From assembly GCA_030530525.1 (NCBI GenBank), contig JAUMUT010000001.1, positions 114,896 through 178,895 on the forward strand: a stretch of DNA of 64,000 bases, written 5' to 3'. A program made the position numbers and the translations under genes. The DNA is from Capnocytophaga sp. (GTDB taxonomy: Bacteria; Bacteroidota; Bacteroidia; Flavobacteriales; Flavobacteriaceae). The notes below the pieces were generated by a model. That model had not been told where the DNA came from. It saw only the letters and a list, made by a program, of their open reading frames with translations, and searched no databases. Below are positions 6,987-59,740 of this stretch, piece after piece. Numbering within the stretch: the first letter of the stretch is position 1; each line of letters starts with the position of its first letter.

Positions 6987-7013
6987 TCACAAAATATCTG
7001 TAAGTGCTTTTTG

Positions 7014-7088
7014 TGGGCCCTACTGGATTCGAACCAGTGACCCCCTGCTTGTAAGGCAGGTGCTCTGAACCAGCTGAGCTAAGAGCCC
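7014..7088 (-). tRNA. tRNA-Val (anticodon TAC)
   Basis: Reverse complement reads GGGCTCTTAGCTCAGCTGGTTCAGAGCACCTGCCTTACAAGCAGGGGGTCACTGGTTCGAATCCAGTAGGGCCCA. Cloverleaf has a 7-bp acceptor stem, anticodon loop cTTACAa and T-loop GGTTCGAATCC. No CCA is encoded. Confidence 0.9.
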
Positions 7089-7121
7089 CTAAATAAATAT
7101 AAATCAAAATTTCTAAAAGAG

Positions 7122-7196
7122 TGGGTCCTACTGGATTCGAACCAGTGACCCCCTGCTTGTAAGGCAGGTGCTCTGAACCAGCTGAGCTAAGAACCC
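7122..7196 (-). tRNA. tRNA-Val (anticodon TAC), tandem second copy
   Basis: Near-identical to the copy at 7014..7088. It differs only at acceptor-stem positions, GGGTTCT...AGGACCCA. The spacer between the two copies is 33 nt. Confidence 0.9.
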
Positions 7197-8629: not shown

Positions 8630-9940
8630 TTAAGAAACTCGAATGATTTTCGCTCCGATAGCCGATAGCCTTTCGTCAATATTTTCATAACCTCTATCAA
8701 TTTGTTCTATGTTATGAATGGTAGAAGTTCCTTTGGCAGACAATGCCGCAATAAGCAAGGCAATCCCCGCACGAATATCGGGTGAAGTCATTGTTGTAGC
8801 GCGCAAAGACGATTTAAAATTATGCCCAATAACTACGGCGCGATGTGGGTCGCATAGGATAATTTTTGCTCCCATATCAATTAATTTATCCACGAAGAAA
8901 AGACGACTTTCAAACATTTTTTGATGAATAAGCACTTCTCCCCTTGCTTGAATGGCAGTTACTAAAATAATACTCAATAAATCGGGCGTAAAGCCAGGCC
9001 AAGGCGCATCGGCAACGGTTAAGATAGAACCATCTATAAAGTTCTGAATTTCATAACCTTCGGTATGAGCAGGAATATAAATATCATCGCCTCTGCGTTC
9101 TATTTTTATTCCTAAACGAGAGAAAACATCAGGAATCATTCCGAGATTGTCATAGCTTGTATTTTTGATAGTAATTTCGCTTTTCGTCATCGCTGCTAAG
9201 CCTATCCAGCTTCCTATTTCTATCATATCAGGGAGAATGGTGTGGGTACAACCGCCCAATTTTTCAACTCCTTTTATTTTAAGAAGATTTGAGCCAATTC
9301 CTTGAATATCAGCACCCATTGCATTTAGCATTTTACAAATTTGCTGTACATAAGGCTCGCAGGCGGCGTTGTAAATAGTGGTTTCGCCTTCGGCTAAAAC
9401 GGCTGCCATAATAATATTAGACGTTCCTGTTACCGAAGCCTCATCCAGCAACATAGAATTTCCTTTTAAGCGATTGGCTTTTACGGAATAATAATGTTTT
9501 TCTTTGCAGTATTCAAATGTTGCTCCAAGTTTTATAAATCCTTCAAAATGAGTATCTAAGCGTCTTCTTCCTATTTTATCTCCGCCTGGCTTAGGAATAT
9601 ATCCATAACCAAAACGAGCCAAAAGAGGACCTACAATAAGGATAGACCCGCGTAGGCTTTGGCTTTCTTGGGCAAATTGTGTAGTAGAGAGATAATCCAA
9701 ATGAATTTCATCTGCTTGAAAACTGTATGAACTTTTTCCTAACTTTTGGATTTTTACTCCCAAATTTCCTAATAAAGTAATGAGTTTATTCACATCTAAA
9801 ATATCAGGAATGTTATGTATGGTTACTTTTTCTTCGGTTAATAATACGGCACAAAGTACTTGAAGCGCCTCATTTTTAGCACCTTGTGGAGTTATTTCTC
9901 CTTTAAGAGCGTGCCCACCTTCTATTTTAAAACTTCCCAT
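8630..9940 (-). CDS. murA: UDP-N-acetylglucosamine 1-carboxyvinyltransferase
   Basis: MGSFKIEGGHALKGEITPQGAKNEALQ is the classic MurA N-terminus. 436 aa. Confidence 0.95.
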   Translation of the reverse strand: MGSFKIEGGHALKGEITPQGAKNEALQVLCAVLLTEEKVTIHNIPDILDVNKLITLLGNLGVKIQKLGKSSYSFQADEIHLDYLSTTQFAQESQSLRGSILIVGPLLARFGYGYIPKPGGDKIGRRRLDTHFEGFIKLGATFEYCKEKHYYSVKANRLKGNSMLLDEASVTGTSNIIMAAVLAEGETTIYNAACEPYVQQICKMLNAMGADIQGIGSNLLKIKGVEKLGGCTHTILPDMIEIGSWIGLAAMTKSEITIKNTSYDNLGMIPDVFSRLGIKIERRGDDIYIPAHTEGYEIQNFIDGSILTVADAPWPGFTPDLLSIILVTAIQARGEVLIHQKMFESRLFFVDKLIDMGAKIILCDPHRAVVIGHNFKSSLRATTMTSPDIRAGIALLIAALSAKGTSTIHNIEQIDRGYENIDERLSAIGAKIIRVS

Positions 9941-9946
9941 AAATAT

Positions 9947-10576
9947 TTATTTTTTCTTGTTGTTTTGTGTGTTTTGGTTATTTTTTTTGTTTGTAAATTT
10001 CTTTTGAAAATTATTCCGTTGTCTGTTATTATTGAGGTTTTGTTCTGATTTTTTCAAATCAATTTTTCCTTTGCTAAGCTCGTATAAATGCTCAAAAATT
10101 ACATCATCTTCTACAGATTCTTTGTTCCACGCCAAGAAGCATTTTTTCATATGGTTGGCAATGGAAAGTTGCAAGGCACTTTTGAGTTCGCCTTCTTCCC
10201 AAAGGTTGCAAACTTCAATTAATCTTAAAATATTATTTCCGTAGAAACGATATTTTGGGTGTTTTTGAGGGTATTGCATTCGTTCTGGATGCGGAGTAAT
10301 AGTTTCGGGAGTTGGCTTTTCAAAAGGAGAATCTACATCTATTTGAAAATTAGACATTTTAAAAAGTTGATCCCATAGTTTGTGCTGAAAATCAGGCACA
10401 TCTCGCAAATGCGGATTTTGGTTTCCCATTATGGCGATAATTGCTTTTGCCATATTATTTCGTAGCGCTCGGTCTTCGGTTTTGGTTGCTTTTTCTACCA
10501 TTTTCTGGATATGTCGCCCATATTCTGGTATAACAAGCGGATTACGAAGCGTATTGTATTCAAGATTTTGTTCCAA
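9947..10576 (-). CDS. DUF4290-like protein with N/K-rich basic C-terminal tail
   Basis: 209 aa. It sits directly upstream of murA, as DUF4290 proteins do in Bacteroidetes. The C-terminal 35 aa are low complexity (NNNRQRNNFQKKFTNKKNNQNTQNNKKK). Confidence 0.6.
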   Translation of the reverse strand: MEQNLEYNTLRNPLVIPEYGRHIQKMVEKATKTEDRALRNNMAKAIIAIMGNQNPHLRDVPDFQHKLWDQLFKMSNFQIDVDSPFEKPTPETITPHPERMQYPQKHPKYRFYGNNILRLIEVCNLWEEGELKSALQLSIANHMKKCFLAWNKESVEDDVIFEHLYELSKGKIDLKKSEQNLNNNRQRNNFQKKFTNKKNNQNTQNNKKK

Positions 10577-53590: not shown

Positions 53591-53593
53591 AAT

Positions 53594-53607
53594 GTTCCAC
53601 GTGGAAC
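53594..53607. repeat. palindromic repeat GTTCCACGTGGAAC, copy 1 of 4
   Basis: Perfect 14-bp palindrome, 4 nt after the lysE-family stop. Flank aatGTTCCACGTGGAACgtttt is shared with the other copies. Confidence 0.8.
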
Positions 53608-53696
53608 GTTTTCTGTTTTACATTAAGTTATTAACAATAAATAAGATTTATAAACTTTATTTTTTATGTAAATAATTTAAAATGAATGTATTACCA

Positions 53697-53734
53697 TACA
53701 AAAAAAGTGATTATCTAAGTAGATAATCACTTTT
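53697..53734 (-). terminator. rho-independent terminator after the OmpH-like lipoprotein gene
   Basis: Perfect 11-bp stem AGTGATTATCT/AGATAATCACT with loop AAGT, followed on the minus strand by T7. Confidence 0.7.
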
Positions 53735-53737
53735 AAT

Positions 53738-54238
53738 TTATTTCTTTTCGTTTAATTCTTTTATTAATTCTTGGGTAATATCTTTATCTTCTTTCCCATA
53801 ATGTACGCTTCCTCCATCATTTGCTCCAAGAATAAAATCATAATTATGTTTTTTACCATATTCTTTTACAAAAGTTTTCACTTTTTTAAGCAAAGTATCC
53901 ATTTTTGTACGACTTTCTTCCTGAATAGCCTGCTGTTCTTCCATTAAATGCTGTTGAAGAATTTGACTTTCTTGCATTAATTCATTTTGTTTTTCTTGTA
54001 TTGCAGCTTGTGATAAATTTTTTGCTTGTGATTCAAAATTTTGTACTTTTAATTGAAAAGCTCTGGAAATACTATCTCGCTTGCGGTCATATTTATCTAT
54101 TTTTCCTTGCAGTAACGATTCTAAGTCTTTCTTTTCCTGATACTCATCTAACAACTTGCTATTATCTACATAGCCTATTTTGTGTTGGCAAGCAGTAAGA
54201 GACGCAATTAATAATCCTCCGAAAATTATTTTATTCAT
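53738..54238 (-). CDS. OmpH/Skp-like periplasmic lipoprotein
   Basis: Lipoprotein signal (LIASLTAC). Q/E-rich coiled coil resembling Skp. 166 aa. First gene of the repeat-punctuated array. Confidence 0.7.
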   Translation of the reverse strand: MNKIIFGGLLIASLTACQHKIGYVDNSKLLDEYQEKKDLESLLQGKIDKYDRKRDSISRAFQLKVQNFESQAKNLSQAAIQEKQNELMQESQILQQHLMEEQQAIQEESRTKMDTLLKKVKTFVKEYGKKHNYDFILGANDGGSVHYGKEDKDITQELIKELNEKK

Positions 54239-54313
54239 AACACTAAATTTAAATTTTTTACAAAGTTACGAATTTTTTTCTTATAATATTTCTATTTTAA
54301 CAAATTAATATTA

Positions 54314-54432
54314 TTTTTGAAAATAGATAAAAAATCAGCTTTCAGAAATCTATTAAATTTTTATTTTCTTTTAATTTTGATATAATATTACATTTATTAT
54401 CAAAATAATTAAAAAAACAACATTTAAAATCG
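54314..54432. repeat. conserved ~110-bp AT-rich intergenic module, copy U1 (no adjacent palindrome)
   Basis: tttttgaaaatagataaaaaatcaGCtttcagaaa...ttttcttttaattttgatataatattacatttattatcaaaataattaaaaaaacaacatttaaaa. About 75-80% identical to U2 and U3. Confidence 0.7.
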
Positions 54433-54492
54433 TTTTTCTATTTTTTTTAAAGCTAAAAAATATTACATTTAGTAAAATTTCTGTGAGAAATA

Positions 54493-55308
54493 TTATTTTT
54501 CCTTTTTCAGAATATAAATCAAAGAAGAATATTCTCCTGTTCGTAAAGCTGACCAATTGGAAAGAAATCCGTTGAAAATTCCTTTAATAAAATTAATTTT
54601 TCCTGTTTTATATTTTTCAGAAAGAAGACTTACATAAAAGGCATCTAACCACATAGGTTTTATTTTTATAAGCTGAAATCCTTTTTCTTTAAAAAGTAAA
54701 TGAATACTTGTTTTAGAAAAATGCCAAAGATGTCGTGGTACATCATAAGCTGCCCAATATTTTCCGTATATTTTAGCATCTTTACTTTTAAAATTGGGTA
54801 CGGCAATAACTACAATTCCGTTTTCAGAAAGATGATTATCCAGAAACTGAATTTGTTTTTCCGTATCAGGGATATGCTCTAAAACGTGCCACATCGTGAT
54901 AGCGTCATATTTTTCGTTTATATGATTTTGATTTTCTTCTAAAAAAATACCCTTCTCCTCTGCTCTACTACGTGCTTTTGCTTCAGGTTCTACTCCTGCT
55001 ATTTGCCATTTTTTTTCTTTTGCTACCCGAAGAAAATCTCCTGTTCCTGCTCCAATATCCAATATTTTTCCTTTTTGTGGAATATATTTTTCTATTAAAG
55101 AAATTTTCTGTTGTAACATATATTTTTTTGCAACCTGATATATTTTTTCAAAAAAACTCTTTTTAGAATCGGTATGCGAAATATAATTATTACTTTGGTA
55201 ATAAAAGCTCAAATTTTCTGGTACAGGTTCGGTTTGATACAAATCATATTTTTCATTATATTTTAAATAAAAAATTTCTTTGCTAACACTATAATCTTCT
55301 ATTTGCAT
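54493..55308 (-). CDS. class I SAM-dependent methyltransferase
   Basis: Motif I ILDIGAGTGDF, acidic motif II (IAGVEPE) and motif III (YDAITMWHVLEHIPD). 271 aa. There is no DNA-methyltransferase (D/N)PP(Y/F) motif. Confidence 0.85.
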   Translation of the reverse strand: MQIEDYSVSKEIFYLKYNEKYDLYQTEPVPENLSFYYQSNNYISHTDSKKSFFEKIYQVAKKYMLQQKISLIEKYIPQKGKILDIGAGTGDFLRVAKEKKWQIAGVEPEAKARSRAEEKGIFLEENQNHINEKYDAITMWHVLEHIPDTEKQIQFLDNHLSENGIVVIAVPNFKSKDAKIYGKYWAAYDVPRHLWHFSKTSIHLLFKEKGFQLIKIKPMWLDAFYVSLLSEKYKTGKINFIKGIFNGFLSNWSALRTGEYSSLIYILKKEK

Positions 55309-55317
55309 AATTTATTT

Positions 55318-55470
55318 GTTCCACGTGGAACATATTTTTTAATAAAAATCATATTTTTTTAGAAAATAGTAAAAAATCAACCCTTAGAAAATGGTTAAAT
55401 TTCTATTTTCTTTTTATTTTGATATAATATTATATTTAATAATAAAATAATTAAAAAAACACCTATTTAA
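55318..55470. repeat. modular intergenic repeat E2: palindrome GTTCCACGTGGAAC (55318-55331) plus conserved module U2 (55355-55470)
   Basis: The palindrome lies 9 nt upstream of the methyltransferase ATG (55308, minus strand). It is followed by tttttagaaaatagtaaaaaatcaaCCcttagaaaa...ttttctttttattttgatataatattatattt...aataattaaaaaaacacctatttaa. Confidence 0.75.
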
Positions 55471-55485
55471 TAAAGAATTTAAAAG

Positions 55486-55675
55486 TGAAAGCTACAAAAC
55501 AGCACGCAGTTGATGGCAAAACCCAAGCCGAAGACCTCTATATCCTCAAAGGTAAAAATAATGATAAAGTTATAATTATACAAGGTATAGCGTTCCTTTT
55601 ATTATAAAATATATGGATATAGAGCGAAATGTACCATAATGGTGGCTATCCATTAAAAAACTGTTTGTAGCTTTC
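55486..55675. repeat. 190-bp element bounded by 16-bp terminal inverted repeats (TGAAAGCTACAAAACAG ... CTGTTTGTAGCTTTC)
   Basis: Inverted repeats at 55486-55502 and 55661-55675 match at 15/16 positions. The interior is locally GC-richer (gcacgcagttgatggcaaaacccaagccgaagacctc) and has no ORF longer than 25 aa. It lies between module U2 and the stop of the coiled-coil gene. Confidence 0.5.
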
Positions 55676-55704
55676 TAAATTCATCTTTTACAAATAATTA
55701 TAGG

Positions 55705-56574
55705 TCAATTATTTTGTGTAGATGAAACCTTTAATAAATTTTCAATTTCGGATTTGTAACTATTTGGTATTACAATTCGGTAGTTTGCTATTTCTTCTTT
55801 TATTTTGCTAAGATCCGAAGTTTTTTCTAATACCAATTCATTTATTTTATTTTGTCGTTCTTCGTACAATCTTTTTTGTTCTTTTTCGTATTCAACTCTT
55901 TTATTATTTTCAAATTCCCGAAACTTAGTTTTATAAAAATTCACTTGACTTTCAAACTCTCTGTGTTGTGCAAGTAGCTGTTCTTGAAGGTTTTGCAGTT
56001 CATTTAAATTATACAAAGGTGTATTTTTTATTTTAAAAACTTGCTCTCCTACTTGTTTAAAACTAATAAGTTCTTTTTTAGTAAGATTTTTCCGAATTTC
56101 ATCAAAGTTATGAATATATTTACCAATATGCGCTGCTTTTGCTTCACTTTCTTTGTATTTAATCACTTCTTCTAACGGAAGTGTTTTCAAATAATCATCT
56201 ATGGTTACGTTTTTGAAAGTTTCCAAATATTCATAATCCATAGGTTTCACCTCTTGTTCTACTTCATTAAAAACATTTTTCAGTTGATTATTAATTAACT
56301 CTATTCGTTTATCTTTTTCTTTTATAGCAGTACGCAAGTAGGCAGAAATAGCGTATAAAGTACCAATTTGTAGTAATTTTTCGTCTATATTCTCTACTTT
56401 TGTATTAATATCCAACGCTTCTCCGTCTATACTTGCGGTGTGTGTAGGAATATCCGTAACAAGGTCTTGAATAGGTTTTACACGTTCTTTAATTCGTTCG
56501 CATACATAATTTGCTTCTGAGGAAGTAAGCCCAGAAACATTTAAATAAGGATTTTTAGTTTTTAAATTTTCCAT
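55705..56574 (-). CDS. hypothetical coiled-coil protein (289 aa), no recognisable domain
   Basis: Long heptad-like K/E-rich segments (LQNLQEQLLAQHREFESQVNFYKTKFREFENNKRVEYEKEQKRLYEERQNKINELVLEK). No signal peptide or TM helix. Flanked on both sides by the modular repeat. Confidence 0.65.
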   Translation of the reverse strand: MENLKTKNPYLNVSGLTSSEANYVCERIKERVKPIQDLVTDIPTHTASIDGEALDINTKVENIDEKLLQIGTLYAISAYLRTAIKEKDKRIELINNQLKNVFNEVEQEVKPMDYEYLETFKNVTIDDYLKTLPLEEVIKYKESEAKAAHIGKYIHNFDEIRKNLTKKELISFKQVGEQVFKIKNTPLYNLNELQNLQEQLLAQHREFESQVNFYKTKFREFENNKRVEYEKEQKRLYEERQNKINELVLEKTSDLSKIKEEIANYRIVIPNSYKSEIENLLKVSSTQNN

Positions 56575-56592
56575 TTTCTATTTTTTACAAAT

Positions 56593-56745
56593 GTTCCACG
56601 TGGAACATTTTTTAGTTTTTATTATTTTATCAAAAAAACACAAAAAATCCACTTTCAGAAAGTATTTATTTTTGTATTTTCTTTTTATTTTAATATAGAA
56701 TTACATTTTATAAAGAAATAATTGAAATTTACCTATTTAAAATAA
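56593..56745. repeat. modular intergenic repeat E3: palindrome GTTCCACGTGGAAC (56593-56606) plus module U3 (56625-56745)
   Basis: The palindrome lies 19 nt upstream of the coiled-coil gene ATG (56574, minus strand). The module ...caaaaaatccaCtttcagaaagtatttatttttgtattttctttttattttaatatagaattacattt... matches U1 and U2. Confidence 0.75.
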
Positions 56746-56771
56746 TTTTCTTCTAAAAAAATAGAGATAAA

Positions 56772-57941
56772 TTAATATTTTTCATAAATATATTTTAAGA
56801 TTTCTTTATCTTCGTTGCTTAGTGTTTTATTTCTGCGAAGCATAACACGTTCGGCTAATTTATAGGCTTCTTCTAACAAAAAGCGTTCTTCTCCCATAAC
56901 GCCTCCCCAACTGAAATTATCTACATATTTTGGTAAGAAACCTTCTTTGAAAATATTTGCAAAAACGCCTACGGTAGTTCCTGTGTTTAATTGTGTATTT
57001 ATAGCTGTTTTGGAATGATCGCCCATTAATAATCCACAGAATTGTAGCCCACTATCTTCAAAATGTTTTCTTTTGTAGCTCCATAAGTTGATATTAGTAT
57101 AAGTATTTTTTAGGTTGGAAGAGTTAGTATCTGCACCAATATTACACCACTCTCCTACTACCGAATTACCTAAAAAACCATCGTGAGCTTTGTTGGTATA
57201 ACCAAAAACGATAAGATTATTCACTTCGCCACCTATTTTAGAATAAGGACCAATGGTAGTTGCTCCGTAAATTTTTGCTCCCATATTAAAAATAGAATGC
57301 TCGCCAAGAGCAATAGCTCCACGAAGGTTACAGCCTTCCATTACTTCTGCATCACGACCAATGTATATTTTTCCCTTAGAAGAGTTGAGTGTTGCATATT
57401 CTACTACTGCGCCTTCTTCCAAGAAAATATGTTCGGGATTGCCAAGTATTCCGTTGGTTTTTGAGATAGGTTGAGAAGTTTTTCCTTTGGTGAGTAGTTC
57501 AAAATCAAAGTCTATTGCTTGTGTATTTTTCAAAAATAATTCGGGTAATTTGTTAAAAAACAAAACTTCTTCGGTTATTTCGGTTCTTTTTTGTAATTTT
57601 TCCAAAGGAAATTCAGAATTTTCTACCCGAGCTACGATAATTTCATTTCTATATACTAACCCCTCACCTACTTTTAGATCTTTTATTTTTTTTAATAAAT
57701 CTTCGTTTGGGATAAAATTCGGAACGATAAATAATGCTTCTTCGCTGCTTTTTTTAGGATATTTATGCTGTAAATAATCTTCGGTGAGGAAAGAAACAGC
57801 TTCTGTATTCAATAATCGTTGCCATCTTTCTCTAAAAGTAAGTATTCCGCAACGTAATTCTGCTACGGGACGAGTAAAAGTAAGTGGTAAAAAAGCCTCC
57901 CAATGTTGGCTATCGGATAAAATTAATTGGAAATTTGCCAT
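56772..57941 (-). CDS. GlmU-like sugar nucleotidyltransferase / left-handed beta-helix acyltransferase-like protein (Bacteroidetes DUF4954-like)
   Basis: 389 aa. Nucleotidyltransferase-like N-half. The C-half has hexapeptide repeats (GATTIGPYSKIGGEVNNLIVFGYTNKAHDGFLGNSVVGEWCNIGADTNSSN). Confidence 0.65.
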   Translation of the reverse strand: MANFQLILSDSQHWEAFLPLTFTRPVAELRCGILTFRERWQRLLNTEAVSFLTEDYLQHKYPKKSSEEALFIVPNFIPNEDLLKKIKDLKVGEGLVYRNEIIVARVENSEFPLEKLQKRTEITEEVLFFNKLPELFLKNTQAIDFDFELLTKGKTSQPISKTNGILGNPEHIFLEEGAVVEYATLNSSKGKIYIGRDAEVMEGCNLRGAIALGEHSIFNMGAKIYGATTIGPYSKIGGEVNNLIVFGYTNKAHDGFLGNSVVGEWCNIGADTNSSNLKNTYTNINLWSYKRKHFEDSGLQFCGLLMGDHSKTAINTQLNTGTTVGVFANIFKEGFLPKYVDNFSWGGVMGEERFLLEEAYKLAERVMLRRNKTLSNEDKEILKYIYEKY

Positions 57942-58048
57942 TGTATAACATTTTAAAAATATGACAAATGTAATAAAAAATACCCAATCTTTTATCTTTT
58001 ACTTGTTAATTTTATTTTAAATAAATGTAATTAATTATTTTATTATAT

Positions 58049-58062
58049 GTTCCACGTGGAAC
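58049..58062. repeat. palindromic repeat GTTCCACGTGGAAC, copy 4, followed by a degenerate module (tgtattttctttttatt)
   Basis: Perfect palindrome 107 nt upstream of the nucleotidyltransferase ATG (57941, minus strand). The flank tatGTTCCACGTGGAACgttttt is shared with the other copies. Confidence 0.8.
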
Positions 58063-58350
58063 GTTTTTGTTTGTATTTTCTTTTTATTAGAAATAATAAA
58101 TAGAAATATAGCATCTTGGGTATTAAAAAATCTATCTGAAAACTTAAAAAAAATATATAAAAATATGTTTTTTCTATCTATCTCTTACTCTATTTTAGGT
58201 ATCTCCTGATAAAAAATAGCTTTAAAAAACTATTTTTATGCTTATAAGTTAAATAAAATAGATAGAAAATGATACTTTTTATCTGCAAAATAAGAAAAAC
58301 TATCTTGTTTTTAGTATTTTCTATCTAAGAAATAAAAAAATCTATCTGGT

Positions 58351-58412
58351 AAAAATAAAAAACCATCTGGAATATTACATTTCCTATATAGGTTATGCAA
58401 TATTCCAGATGG
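58351..58412 (-). terminator. rho-independent terminator after tilS
   Basis: Perfect 14-bp inverted repeat CCATCTGGAATATT / AATATTCCAGATGG with a 22-nt loop, followed on the minus strand by a T-rich run (plus-strand aaaaataaaaaa). Confidence 0.65.
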
Positions 58413-58429
58413 TAAATGAAGTTTTCTAT

Positions 58430-59740
58430 CTATAAAATTTCTATTTTCAGTATATTTTTTGTATTTTCTGTTACTTTATAACGTTCATCAAGGCGTTTTT
58501 TTATTATCCATATAATAGAATCTTCATTATCGGTTAATATCCACTGATTTTCTTTATCAATAATAGAATATTTTTCATCTTTAAAGAATTTACTAAGGAG
58601 CTTTTTTTGATATTTCATTCCGATAGGATAAAAATAATCTGCTTCTTTTCGTTTTCTTAGCTGTAAAGGGAAAGTTACTTTATCTTTATTTATATAAATA
58701 ACGTTTGGATTGAAATTTTCTACCTTTTCTACCTCTGTAATATGCATTCGGAAAGGATTTTCTATCTGTGAAATATTTTCTTCTATAAGGAAAATAAAAT
58801 TTTCTTTCTCGGAATGAAGAGGAACTACCTCCCACTTTCCGTGATGTTGAATAATTCGGTGAGTATCAGAATATATTTGTTTTCCCGAAGGTGCGGAAAC
58901 AAATTTATCTAATTCGTCAGCGTTTTTGAAATTATATTTTTTAAATAATTCTAATAAAATATATCTTCTGTGAGGATTATTTTTTATTTTTTCTACTAAA
59001 AAAATAGTTTTATCTTCATAAATAAAACATTCTTTTGCTATATTTTCTAATACGGAATGAAGAAAAGATTGTGTTTGTGCTAAGTTTTCTTGCGTACGTA
59101 GAAAGTTTTGTAAAAAATGAGAATGAATTTCTTTTAAAATAGGGGAAATATGATGTCTTATTTTATTACGAACATAGTGGTCAGTAGCGTTAGAGCTATC
59201 TTCACGCCATTTTATATTATTTTCTATTGCAAAATGACATATTTCATCTCTGGAAAAAGGTAAAAGAGGACGAATAATGTTTCCGTTACGTTCAGGAATA
59301 GATAATAAACCTTGCAAACCTGACCCACGAGAAAGGTTAATTAAAAATGTTTCTACCATATCGTCTGCGTGATGTGCTACGGCTATATAATCACATTGTT
59401 TTTCTTTACATACTTCTGCAAACCATTGATAACGAAGTTGGCGAGCGGCTAATTGAGTATTTAACTTATGTTCTTTTGCATATTTTTTTGTTTCAAAACG
59501 AGTAAAATACAATGGAAGAGCTTGTTTATTAGCAAAATCTTTTACAAAAAGTTCATCGCCATCACTCTCCTCTCCTCTCAATTGAAAATTACAATGTGCC
59601 AGATGTAGAGAAACGTTTATTTGTTTTAGTAAAATAGCTAAAACAACACTATCTATTCCTCCGCTAATAGCTAAAAGGATTTTTTTATCTTGGATATCCG
59701 AAAAGTGAGCTGCAAAATGTTTTTTGAAACGAGAAATCAT
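58430..59740 (-). CDS. tilS: tRNA(Ile)-lysidine synthetase
   Basis: PP-loop SGGIDSVVL. 436 aa, with the long C-terminal substrate-binding domain typical of TilS. Its start overlaps the upstream gene stop (ATGA). Confidence 0.9.
   Translation of the reverse strand: MISRFKKHFAAHFSDIQDKKILLAISGGIDSVVLAILLKQINVSLHLAHCNFQLRGEESDGDELFVKDFANKQALPLYFTRFETKKYAKEHKLNTQLAARQLRYQWFAEVCKEKQCDYIAVAHHADDMVETFLINLSRGSGLQGLLSIPERNGNIIRPLLPFSRDEICHFAIENNIKWREDSSNATDHYVRNKIRHHISPILKEIHSHFLQNFLRTQENLAQTQSFLHSVLENIAKECFIYEDKTIFLVEKIKNNPHRRYILLELFKKYNFKNADELDKFVSAPSGKQIYSDTHRIIQHHGKWEVVPLHSEKENFIFLIEENISQIENPFRMHITEVEKVENFNPNVIYINKDKVTFPLQLRKRKEADYFYPIGMKYQKKLLSKFFKDEKYSIIDKENQWILTDNEDSIIWIIKKRLDERYKVTENTKNILKIEIL

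Follow-up and report, generated by a model that had tools for sequence, protein, structure and literature searches.

A probable chromosomal parS cluster in a Capnocytophaga-like genome, with a duplicated spacer module and a gene-plus-RNA cassette between its sites

What is the role of a palindrome that recurs between the genes of one short chromosomal region? The question is raised by a 64-kb stretch of contig JAUMUT010000001.1 (assembly GCA_030530525.1), here called the window, from a metagenome-assembled genome (MAG) labelled Capnocytophaga sp. The palindrome GTTCCACGTGGAAC has four exact copies in it, at positions 53594, 55318, 56593 and 58049, all between open reading frames (ORFs) and none inside a gene, where dinucleotide-preserving shuffles give a chance expectation of 0.07 ± 0.26 copies per window. 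An initial annotation of this DNA had reported the four intergenic copies, which the exact-match count bears out, and had suggested a dimeric DNA-binding protein that recognizes a CACGTG-centred palindrome. That part of its interpretation appears right, judging from the identity of the site with parS, while the accompanying proposals of an unknown regulator, replacement of promoters, an operator, a repeat family and a cassette array do not stand. The four palindromes are very probably chromosomal parS centromere sites. The protein that would bind them is not an undescribed regulator but the universal chromosome-partition protein ParB, with parS as its textbook site. The locus thus adds a new host to a known kind of feature, the chromosomal parS cluster, and not a novel regulator or repeat element.

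The identification begins with the letters of the sites. With one base added on either side of the palindrome, sites 1 to 4 read TGTTCCACGTGGAACG, TGTTCCACGTGGAACA, TGTTCCACGTGGAACA and TGTTCCACGTGGAACG. Table 1 of PMC7022226 gives TGTTCCACGTGGAACA as the parS of Pseudomonas aeruginosa and P. putida, TGTTCCACGTGGAACG as that of Myxococcus xanthus and TGTTNCACGTGAAACA as that of Bacillus subtilis, and it is because the sites are letter-identical to the published parS of Pseudomonas and Myxococcus that the palindromes are read as parS. Site 1 (53593..53608) is TGTTCCACGTGGAACG, with a single mismatch to the perfect palindrome at its last base, and lies where the LysE and OmpH genes converge, 3 nt past the stop codon of LysE. 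Site 2 (55317..55332) is the perfect 16-bp palindrome TGTTCCACGTGGAACA, identical in sequence to P. aeruginosa parS2/parS3, and lies 9 nt upstream of the ATG of a methyltransferase gene. Site 3 (56592..56607), also the perfect palindrome TGTTCCACGTGGAACA, is 18 nt upstream of the ATG of a gene for a protein of 289 amino acids (aa), and site 4 (58048..58063), again TGTTCCACGTGGAACG, is 107 nt upstream of the ATG of a GlmU-like gene; no strand is assigned to any of the four. Measured against the parS inverted-repeat criterion tGTTNCACGTGNAACa, two sites agree at 16 of 16 positions and two at 15 of 16. Within the 64-kb window there is no copy of GTTCCACGTGGAAC beyond these four at up to two mismatches and no match to TGTTNCACGTGNAACA besides the four sites at up to three, so the sites are clustered in 4.5 kb and the rest of the window is empty of them.

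The same motif is found throughout the bacteria. A scan for TGTTCCACGTGGAACRTTTT in one genome per species, covering 185,579 species, returned at least 120 loci where about 2 would be expected by chance. Among the matches listed, the hosts belong to Bacteroidota, Firmicutes, Acidobacteriota, Alpha- and Gammaproteobacteria, Bdellovibrionota, Patescibacteria, Verrucomicrobiota, Nitrospirota and others, and their G+C content lies between 28 and 67%. Of these 120 loci, 71 have the exact motif at least twice within 8 kb, with a maximum of eight copies; an ORF with the ParB arginine-patch motif lies no more than 2.5 kb from the site at 30, and an ORF with a ParA-type Walker A motif accompanies the site at 29. 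All ten ParB candidates tested by Pfam consist of ParB_N and HTH_ParB, with E values of 1e-25 to 1e-40. Since the motif is invariant across phyla, clustered and enriched beside parB, it is to be regarded as parS, unlike a lineage-specific operator, terminator or mobile repeat. Counting the palindrome in other genomes was a check that the initial annotation had proposed, and its outcome, many phyla and a parB-motif ORF at a quarter of the loci, does not describe the site of a lineage-specific regulator. Dense arrays of parS with repeated flanks, with up to eight sites in 800 bp, occur in Patescibacteria, Methylococcaceae and Ruminococcus (L041 7009-7812; L086 860-1043; L037; L067; L050), and because of these arrays the local amplification of parS-bearing units seems to be common.

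A close relative, represented by metagenomic contigs L128-L130, has a GlmU-like protein 84-85% identical to that of the window. Its gene order is the same (GlmU-like, 289-aa gene, methyltransferase, OmpH, LysE), and in L128 all four parS sites occupy orthologous intergenic positions. Between the window and L128, 60 of the 64 parS-site positions are identical, against 62-75% identity for the surrounding intergenic DNA and 79% for coding DNA. The sole change in the 14-nt core is a G to A at the N position of the consensus, which turns the counterpart of site 1 into TGTTCCACGTGAAACA. Because the sites are near-identical in the relative and the flanking intergenic DNA is only 62-75% identical, the parS sites appear to be under purifying selection while their flanks drift. 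At 10414-10430 of L128, the called ATG of the methyltransferase is made up of the base before parS and the first two bases of the site (aATGTTCCACG...). This start, which gives a protein of 279 aa as called against 271 aa in the window, is probably mis-called.

The neighbourhood of the sites is conserved well beyond this pair of genomes. At the two loci examined in Olleya and Salinimicrobium, a pair of parS sites flanks gidA/mnmG and is followed by the same Methyltransf_23 and OmpH genes. Among the matches listed, parS adjoins the orthologous methyltransferase at no fewer than ten other loci, including one in a Bacteroidales MAG and others in additional Flavobacteriaceae such as Muriicola, Kordia and Tamlana, and the distance between parS and the methyltransferase in other Bacteroidota is about 20 to 140 nt. 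Because the same adjacency is seen in other Flavobacteriaceae and in Bacteroidales, site 2, ahead of the methyltransferase, is in the ancestral position. Loci at which parS lies directly upstream of the Methyltransf_23 ortholog, usually with OmpH next, include L007, L016, L019, L035, L036, L055, L088, L092 and L102. The second parS of Olleya and Salinimicrobium lies beyond gidA/mnmG, which puts the methyltransferase in the place held by gidB/rsmG in other phyla. The gidA/mnmG gene is a classic origin-region gene, and it is the orthologous parS sites flanking it in related families that supply an origin context for the cluster in the window.

By identity with the systems that have been studied, ParB (Spo0J) dimers would recognize each 16-bp site through their helix-turn-helix domains, and binding at parS would close ParB into a clamp that depends on cytidine triphosphate (CTP) and slides onto the flanking DNA. 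PMC8299390, PMC8357417 and bioRxiv 10.1101/2021.05.05.442573 describe ParB dimers that, once bound to the 16-bp site, form a sliding clamp dependent on CTP and spread from there, and a resulting partition complex that is segregated by ParA. With several adjacent sites, one large partition complex would be expected over the ~5-kb region; ParA would move this complex and the origin-proximal DNA apart after replication, and the same complex would load the condensin-type machinery that organizes the origin domain. Multiple sites would provide redundancy and a higher local load of ParB. If the neighbouring genes are affected at all, this would be a side effect of the ParB that occupies the sites and not what the sites are for. 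Genes possibly affected include those for the methyltransferase and the 289-aa protein, neither of which has a -7 box of its own and whose start codons lie 9 and 18 nt downstream of parS. PMC5961200 reports that transcription near parS is influenced by ParB in some species, and such an effect is discussed in PMC4368675; by analogy, ParB occupancy may dampen local transcription here as reported for Pseudomonas.

Some observations weigh against the identification as parS. Neither parB nor parA was detected in the 64-kb window or in the fetched loci of the relatives by motif search and ParB profile search, and for that reason the cognate ParB of this genome is assumed. The window has no DnaA-box cluster and no clear turn in GC skew. 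Finally, each of the four sites also shows a weak pattern of hairpin plus T-run on the plus strand, through which it may have a secondary role.

Among the alternatives, the one that survives best, although very unlikely, is that a dedicated transcription factor co-regulates the four flanking genes with the palindrome as its operator, the module replacing their promoters. The genes in question follow LysE (plus strand) and are all on the minus strand: an OmpH/Skp-like chaperone gene (53738..54238), a gene for an S-adenosylmethionine methyltransferase of the Methyltransf_23 family, the conserved parS neighbour in Bacteroidota (54493..55308), the gene for the 289-aa all-helical protein, which belongs to no family and whose gene, together with an RNA, makes up a cassette inserted in the cluster (55705..56574), and a gene for a GlmU-like sugar nucleotidyltransferase/acetyltransferase with TIGR03991 and NTP_transf_4/hexapeptide matches (56772..57941); TilS comes next. 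Domain searches agree with the initial annotation on all four assignments (OmpH-like, methyltransferase, 289-aa protein, GlmU-like). Its placing of the palindrome upstream of three starts is correct for 9 and 107 nt, and the third distance, given as 19 nt, is 18 nt before the ATG of the 289-aa gene. It is these perfect palindromes just upstream of three start codons, the want of a TAnnTTTG box of their own at the methyltransferase and 289-aa genes, and the influence of ParB itself on transcription near parS in some species (PMC4368675 and PMC5961200) that speak for an operator.

The promoters do not agree with it. The initial annotation saw no TAnnTTTG -7 box at any of the four genes and proposed that the modules stand in for the standard promoter, whereas OmpH has the Bacteroidetes-type box TAACTTTG (reverse complement of 54261..54268, minus strand) 23 nt upstream of its ATG and the GlmU-like gene has TACATTTG (reverse complement of 57964..57971, minus strand) 24 nt upstream of its own. 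Both boxes are conserved in L128, and both distances fall inside the 11-43 nt that separate TAnnTTTG from the start of most other genes of the window, so that a standard -7 box at the standard distance is present at two of these four genes. In the TAnnTTTG scan only the methyltransferase and the 289-aa gene, of the four, are without a box of their own, and these two may be read through from the promoter of the GlmU-like gene. Nor does the geometry suit co-regulation, with distances of 9, 18 and 107 nt, a fourth site between the ends of convergent genes, and a distance to the methyltransferase that varies widely in relatives (20-140 nt in other Bacteroidota). Moreover, the same 16-mer stands in many phyla beside unrelated genes and often beside parB, no regulator gene is adjacent, and the four genes are functionally unrelated, one of them being a recent insertion.

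More improbable still is that the palindromes are primarily intrinsic transcription terminators, perhaps bidirectional, or attenuators. All four are flagged in the plus-strand search for a hairpin plus T-run (11 sites found against 1.5 expected), site 1 is only 3 nt past the LysE stop codon, and in other genomes the motif frequently forms part of a longer inverted repeat bordered by runs of A and T. However, sequence is not conserved in terminators, and this 14-16-mer is invariant across phyla and in a species pair with diverged flanks. The stem has just 5-6 pairs and is poor in G/C, all T-runs but one face a strand without a gene, only site 1 follows a plus-strand gene, and OmpH has its real terminator elsewhere, a separate 14-bp hairpin at 53703-53734.

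That the palindrome and the module together form a small non-autonomous mobile repeat of intergenic space, like a miniature inverted-repeat transposable element (MITE) or a repetitive extragenic palindromic (REP) element, is the least probable reading, since their intergenic and modular arrangement, the 72-80% identity between copies and the ~150-nt direct repeat on both sides of an inserted gene are set against the lack of either element elsewhere in the 64 kb, identical positions in a related species, the absence of the module from the 120 other parS loci listed (the two are therefore not one mobile unit), the fact that the module is bordered neither by terminal inverted repeats nor by target duplications, and the parS sites of other Flavobacteriaceae, which have no module. 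The initial annotation had entertained such an interspersed family and had also compared the locus with cassette arrays; no integrase or recombinase is found among the neighbours, and the palindrome is without the attC core pattern (RYYYAAC/GTTRRRY).

If the palindromes are parS, what is the module? The initial annotation had placed it at 54314, 55355 and 56625, and a profile search of the window recovers these three copies at E = 5e-15 to 8e-16, with one weak match at 42.8 kb (E = 0.14); a partial copy adjoins site 4. The copies are about 100-115 nt long, all are on the minus strand, and the three full ones are 72-80% identical. Copy 1 (54314..54428) is without parS and lies between the methyltransferase and OmpH genes. 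Copy 2 (55356-55470) together with site 2 makes up direct repeat B of ~154 nt (55317..55470; local alignment, score 75), immediately downstream of the 289-aa gene with its RNA, and copy 3 (56627-56741) together with site 3 makes up direct repeat A of ~149 nt (56592..56740), just upstream of that gene. The partial module (58072..58090), 19 nt identical to copy 3, abuts site 4. Thus a ~150-nt direct repeat of module plus parS, ending exactly at parS, stands on either side of the 289-aa gene and its RNA, and L128 has the same arrangement (8994-9127 and 10290-10430). No flanking direct repeats are present at the cassette insertions in other species (L123-L126).

Beyond the window, the module profile matches three orthologous copies in L128, at the same positions. 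The profile search did not find the module in the 120 parS loci of other genomes among the matches listed, and no analogous internal repeat occurs at the parS loci of Olleya or Salinimicrobium. A widespread element was accordingly rejected, as profile matches are confined to the window and its L128 orthologues. Special constraint on the module was also rejected: identity between orthologous modules is 62-69%, no higher than the 62-75% of the neighbouring non-module spacers. A promoter was considered as well; the module has no TAnnTTTG box inside, and sigma-70-type matches number 29 against 30.5 expected from shuffles. Within the window the copies are 75-80% alike against 66-69% to their orthologues, and within the relative they are 61-66% alike. 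As the window copies are closer to each other than to their orthologues, the pattern fits an old duplication with some later homogenization in the lineage of the window. The module thus appears to be a lineage-specific local duplication. We infer that, lying outside the recognition site, it would be the residue of local duplication of a parS-bearing intergenic spacer, one such duplication having added a parS copy. The direct repeats that flank the cassette and end at parS suggest that one parS copy arose by a duplication linked to the insertion of the cassette; at least one duplication would therefore flank the inserted gene and RNA, and it probably yielded one of the four sites.

The cassette itself raises a further question. 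It spans 55487-56574 on the minus strand of the window and is also found at L123, L124, L125, L126, L128 and L133-L178. Other Capnocytophaga species have the 289-aa gene in unrelated chromosomal settings, and so does Moraxella, with homologues 58-60% identical; at the Capnocytophaga and Moraxella loci the box TTGACCTATAA and a structured RNA of about 220 nt always come after the gene. In the window this RNA (55487..55714, minus strand) has a 5' hairpin with the loop GACCUAU at 55692-55714, which overlaps the stop codon, and a core at 55487-55675 (minus strand) closed by a 16-bp helix. Each RNA folds on its own into a 5' hairpin with a GACCUAU loop and a closing helix of 15-18 bp, the sequence of which differs between lineages while the pairing is preserved. 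From ten Capnocytophaga-type sequences, RNAalifold recovers both the closing helix and, inside it, a helix of 10 bp. In the alignment 93.8% of cells are paired, and 14 of the 29 pairs have changes on both sides, against 6.5 ± 1.6 in shuffles (none of 500 reaches it) and 2-5 in slid controls. The G-U pairs place the RNA on the strand of the 289-aa gene. The genes of distant relatives of the protein (24-31% identity), two of them from viral contigs, are likewise followed by an analogous fold, and repeated motifs of the CUUUG type are common to them.

The protein family comprises 645 clusters at 50% identity. The 289-aa protein has no match in Pfam, PADLOC or NCBIfam and no informative structural neighbour was found for it, and the ~220-nt RNA has no match in Rfam. 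A link of the cassette to RtcR/RNA ligase was tried and holds only at some Moraxella loci; a target-site duplication in other genomes was sought, and L123-L126 show no flanking repeats. Tentatively, and with doubts at least equal to our confidence, the 289-aa gene and its RNA may be an undescribed, horizontally mobile protein-RNA cassette (about 60% identity between Capnocytophaga and Moraxella, distant kin on phage contigs) that forms a new ribonucleoprotein system. Its insertion into the centromere region would have gone with a ~150-nt parS-bearing duplication that created one of the four sites, and the modular repeat would be in part the footprint of that insertion. The gene-plus-RNA cassette is in any case a concrete candidate for a new RNA-protein system, and if it is a ribonucleoprotein system, possible roles are defence, mobility or RNA metabolism.

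Some further features of the region and its host may be recorded. The closest named homologues of the GlmU-like protein are those of Weeksellaceae (Riemerella, Soonwooa and Chryseobacterium, ~65%) and not those of named Capnocytophaga species, and the G+C content of the window is ~28-35%; for these two reasons the MAG label 'Capnocytophaga sp.' may cover a rather divergent lineage. In the spacer between site 4 and the TilS stop codon (58100-58430), a short repeat that contains TCTATCT(G/A) recurs several times (58133-58180 against 58280-58327, for instance, and also at 58317 and 58422), and there is a near-perfect hairpin with 26-nt arms at 58362-58413, probably the TilS terminator. Elsewhere in the window two tandem tRNA-Val(TAC) genes lie 33 nt apart on the minus strand at 7013-7196, and Rfam finds only four tRNAs, with the whole window searched at gathering thresholds and 53.3-58.5 kb at E <= 5.

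The parS/ParB pair is among the best-studied bacterial DNA-protein systems, and the sequence in the window is the canonical one. In practice, the cluster helps to orient the chromosome of an uncultured Capnocytophaga-like oral bacterium by marking its probable origin-proximal centromere, and the conserved neighbourhood of parS, methyltransferase and OmpH offers a simple landmark for the Bacteroidota. The locus also illustrates how the copy number of parS can grow by local duplication of spacers. The part that deserves follow-up is the cassette embedded in the cluster: a by-product of this analysis, it could matter more than parS, as a family of 645 clusters without domain annotation linked to an RNA that is absent from Rfam.

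How does the cluster compare with known systems? Among its own family, it keeps the ancestral order of parS, Methyltransf_23 and OmpH found with the gidA-flanking pair of Flavobacteriaceae (Olleya, Salinimicrobium and others), but it has the GlmU-like gene and the inserted gene-RNA cassette where gidA stands, and its parS-bearing spacer has been duplicated, giving the module. At the level of the phylum, PMC10197239 reports that Bacteroidetes carry ParABS homologues and clustered parS marking the origin domain, and that parS clusters recruit SMC and shape this domain. The gut species studied there by Hi-C, Bacteroides caecimuris and Muribaculum intestinale, share with the window the phylum, the parS consensus and the clustering of sites, which in those species mark the origin domain; complete genomes and contact maps are available for them, against 64 kb of sequence here. 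More distantly, the Spo0J/parS system of B. subtilis (PMC7022226) has the same consensus, and the variant TGTTCCACGTGAAACA of the relative fits the B. subtilis form TGTTNCACGTGAAACA. Like the parS array of M. xanthus (PMC7022226), it has many sites nucleating one ParB complex. In B. subtilis the sites are scattered across a large region near the origin, in contrast to four sites in 4.5 kb in the window; those of M. xanthus are tightly clustered as in the window, with 22 sites there against four here.

The closest parallel is the parS1-parS4 cluster of P. aeruginosa, four sites near oriC that are all bound by ParB in vitro and any single one of which suffices for segregation (Jecz et al. 2015, PMC4368675). 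The two differ in that the mismatched base is C in P. aeruginosa and G in the window, the host of the window is a Flavobacteriaceae MAG in which parAB is not nearby, and ParB binding and oriC proximity are established for P. aeruginosa, while the window sites are known from their sequence. Yet the two clusters share the 16-mer TGTTCCACGTGGAACA, the intergenic or gene-proximal position of the sites and the same composition, for the four P. aeruginosa sites are two perfect palindromes and two with one last-base mismatch (PMC4368675), exactly as are the four sites of the window.

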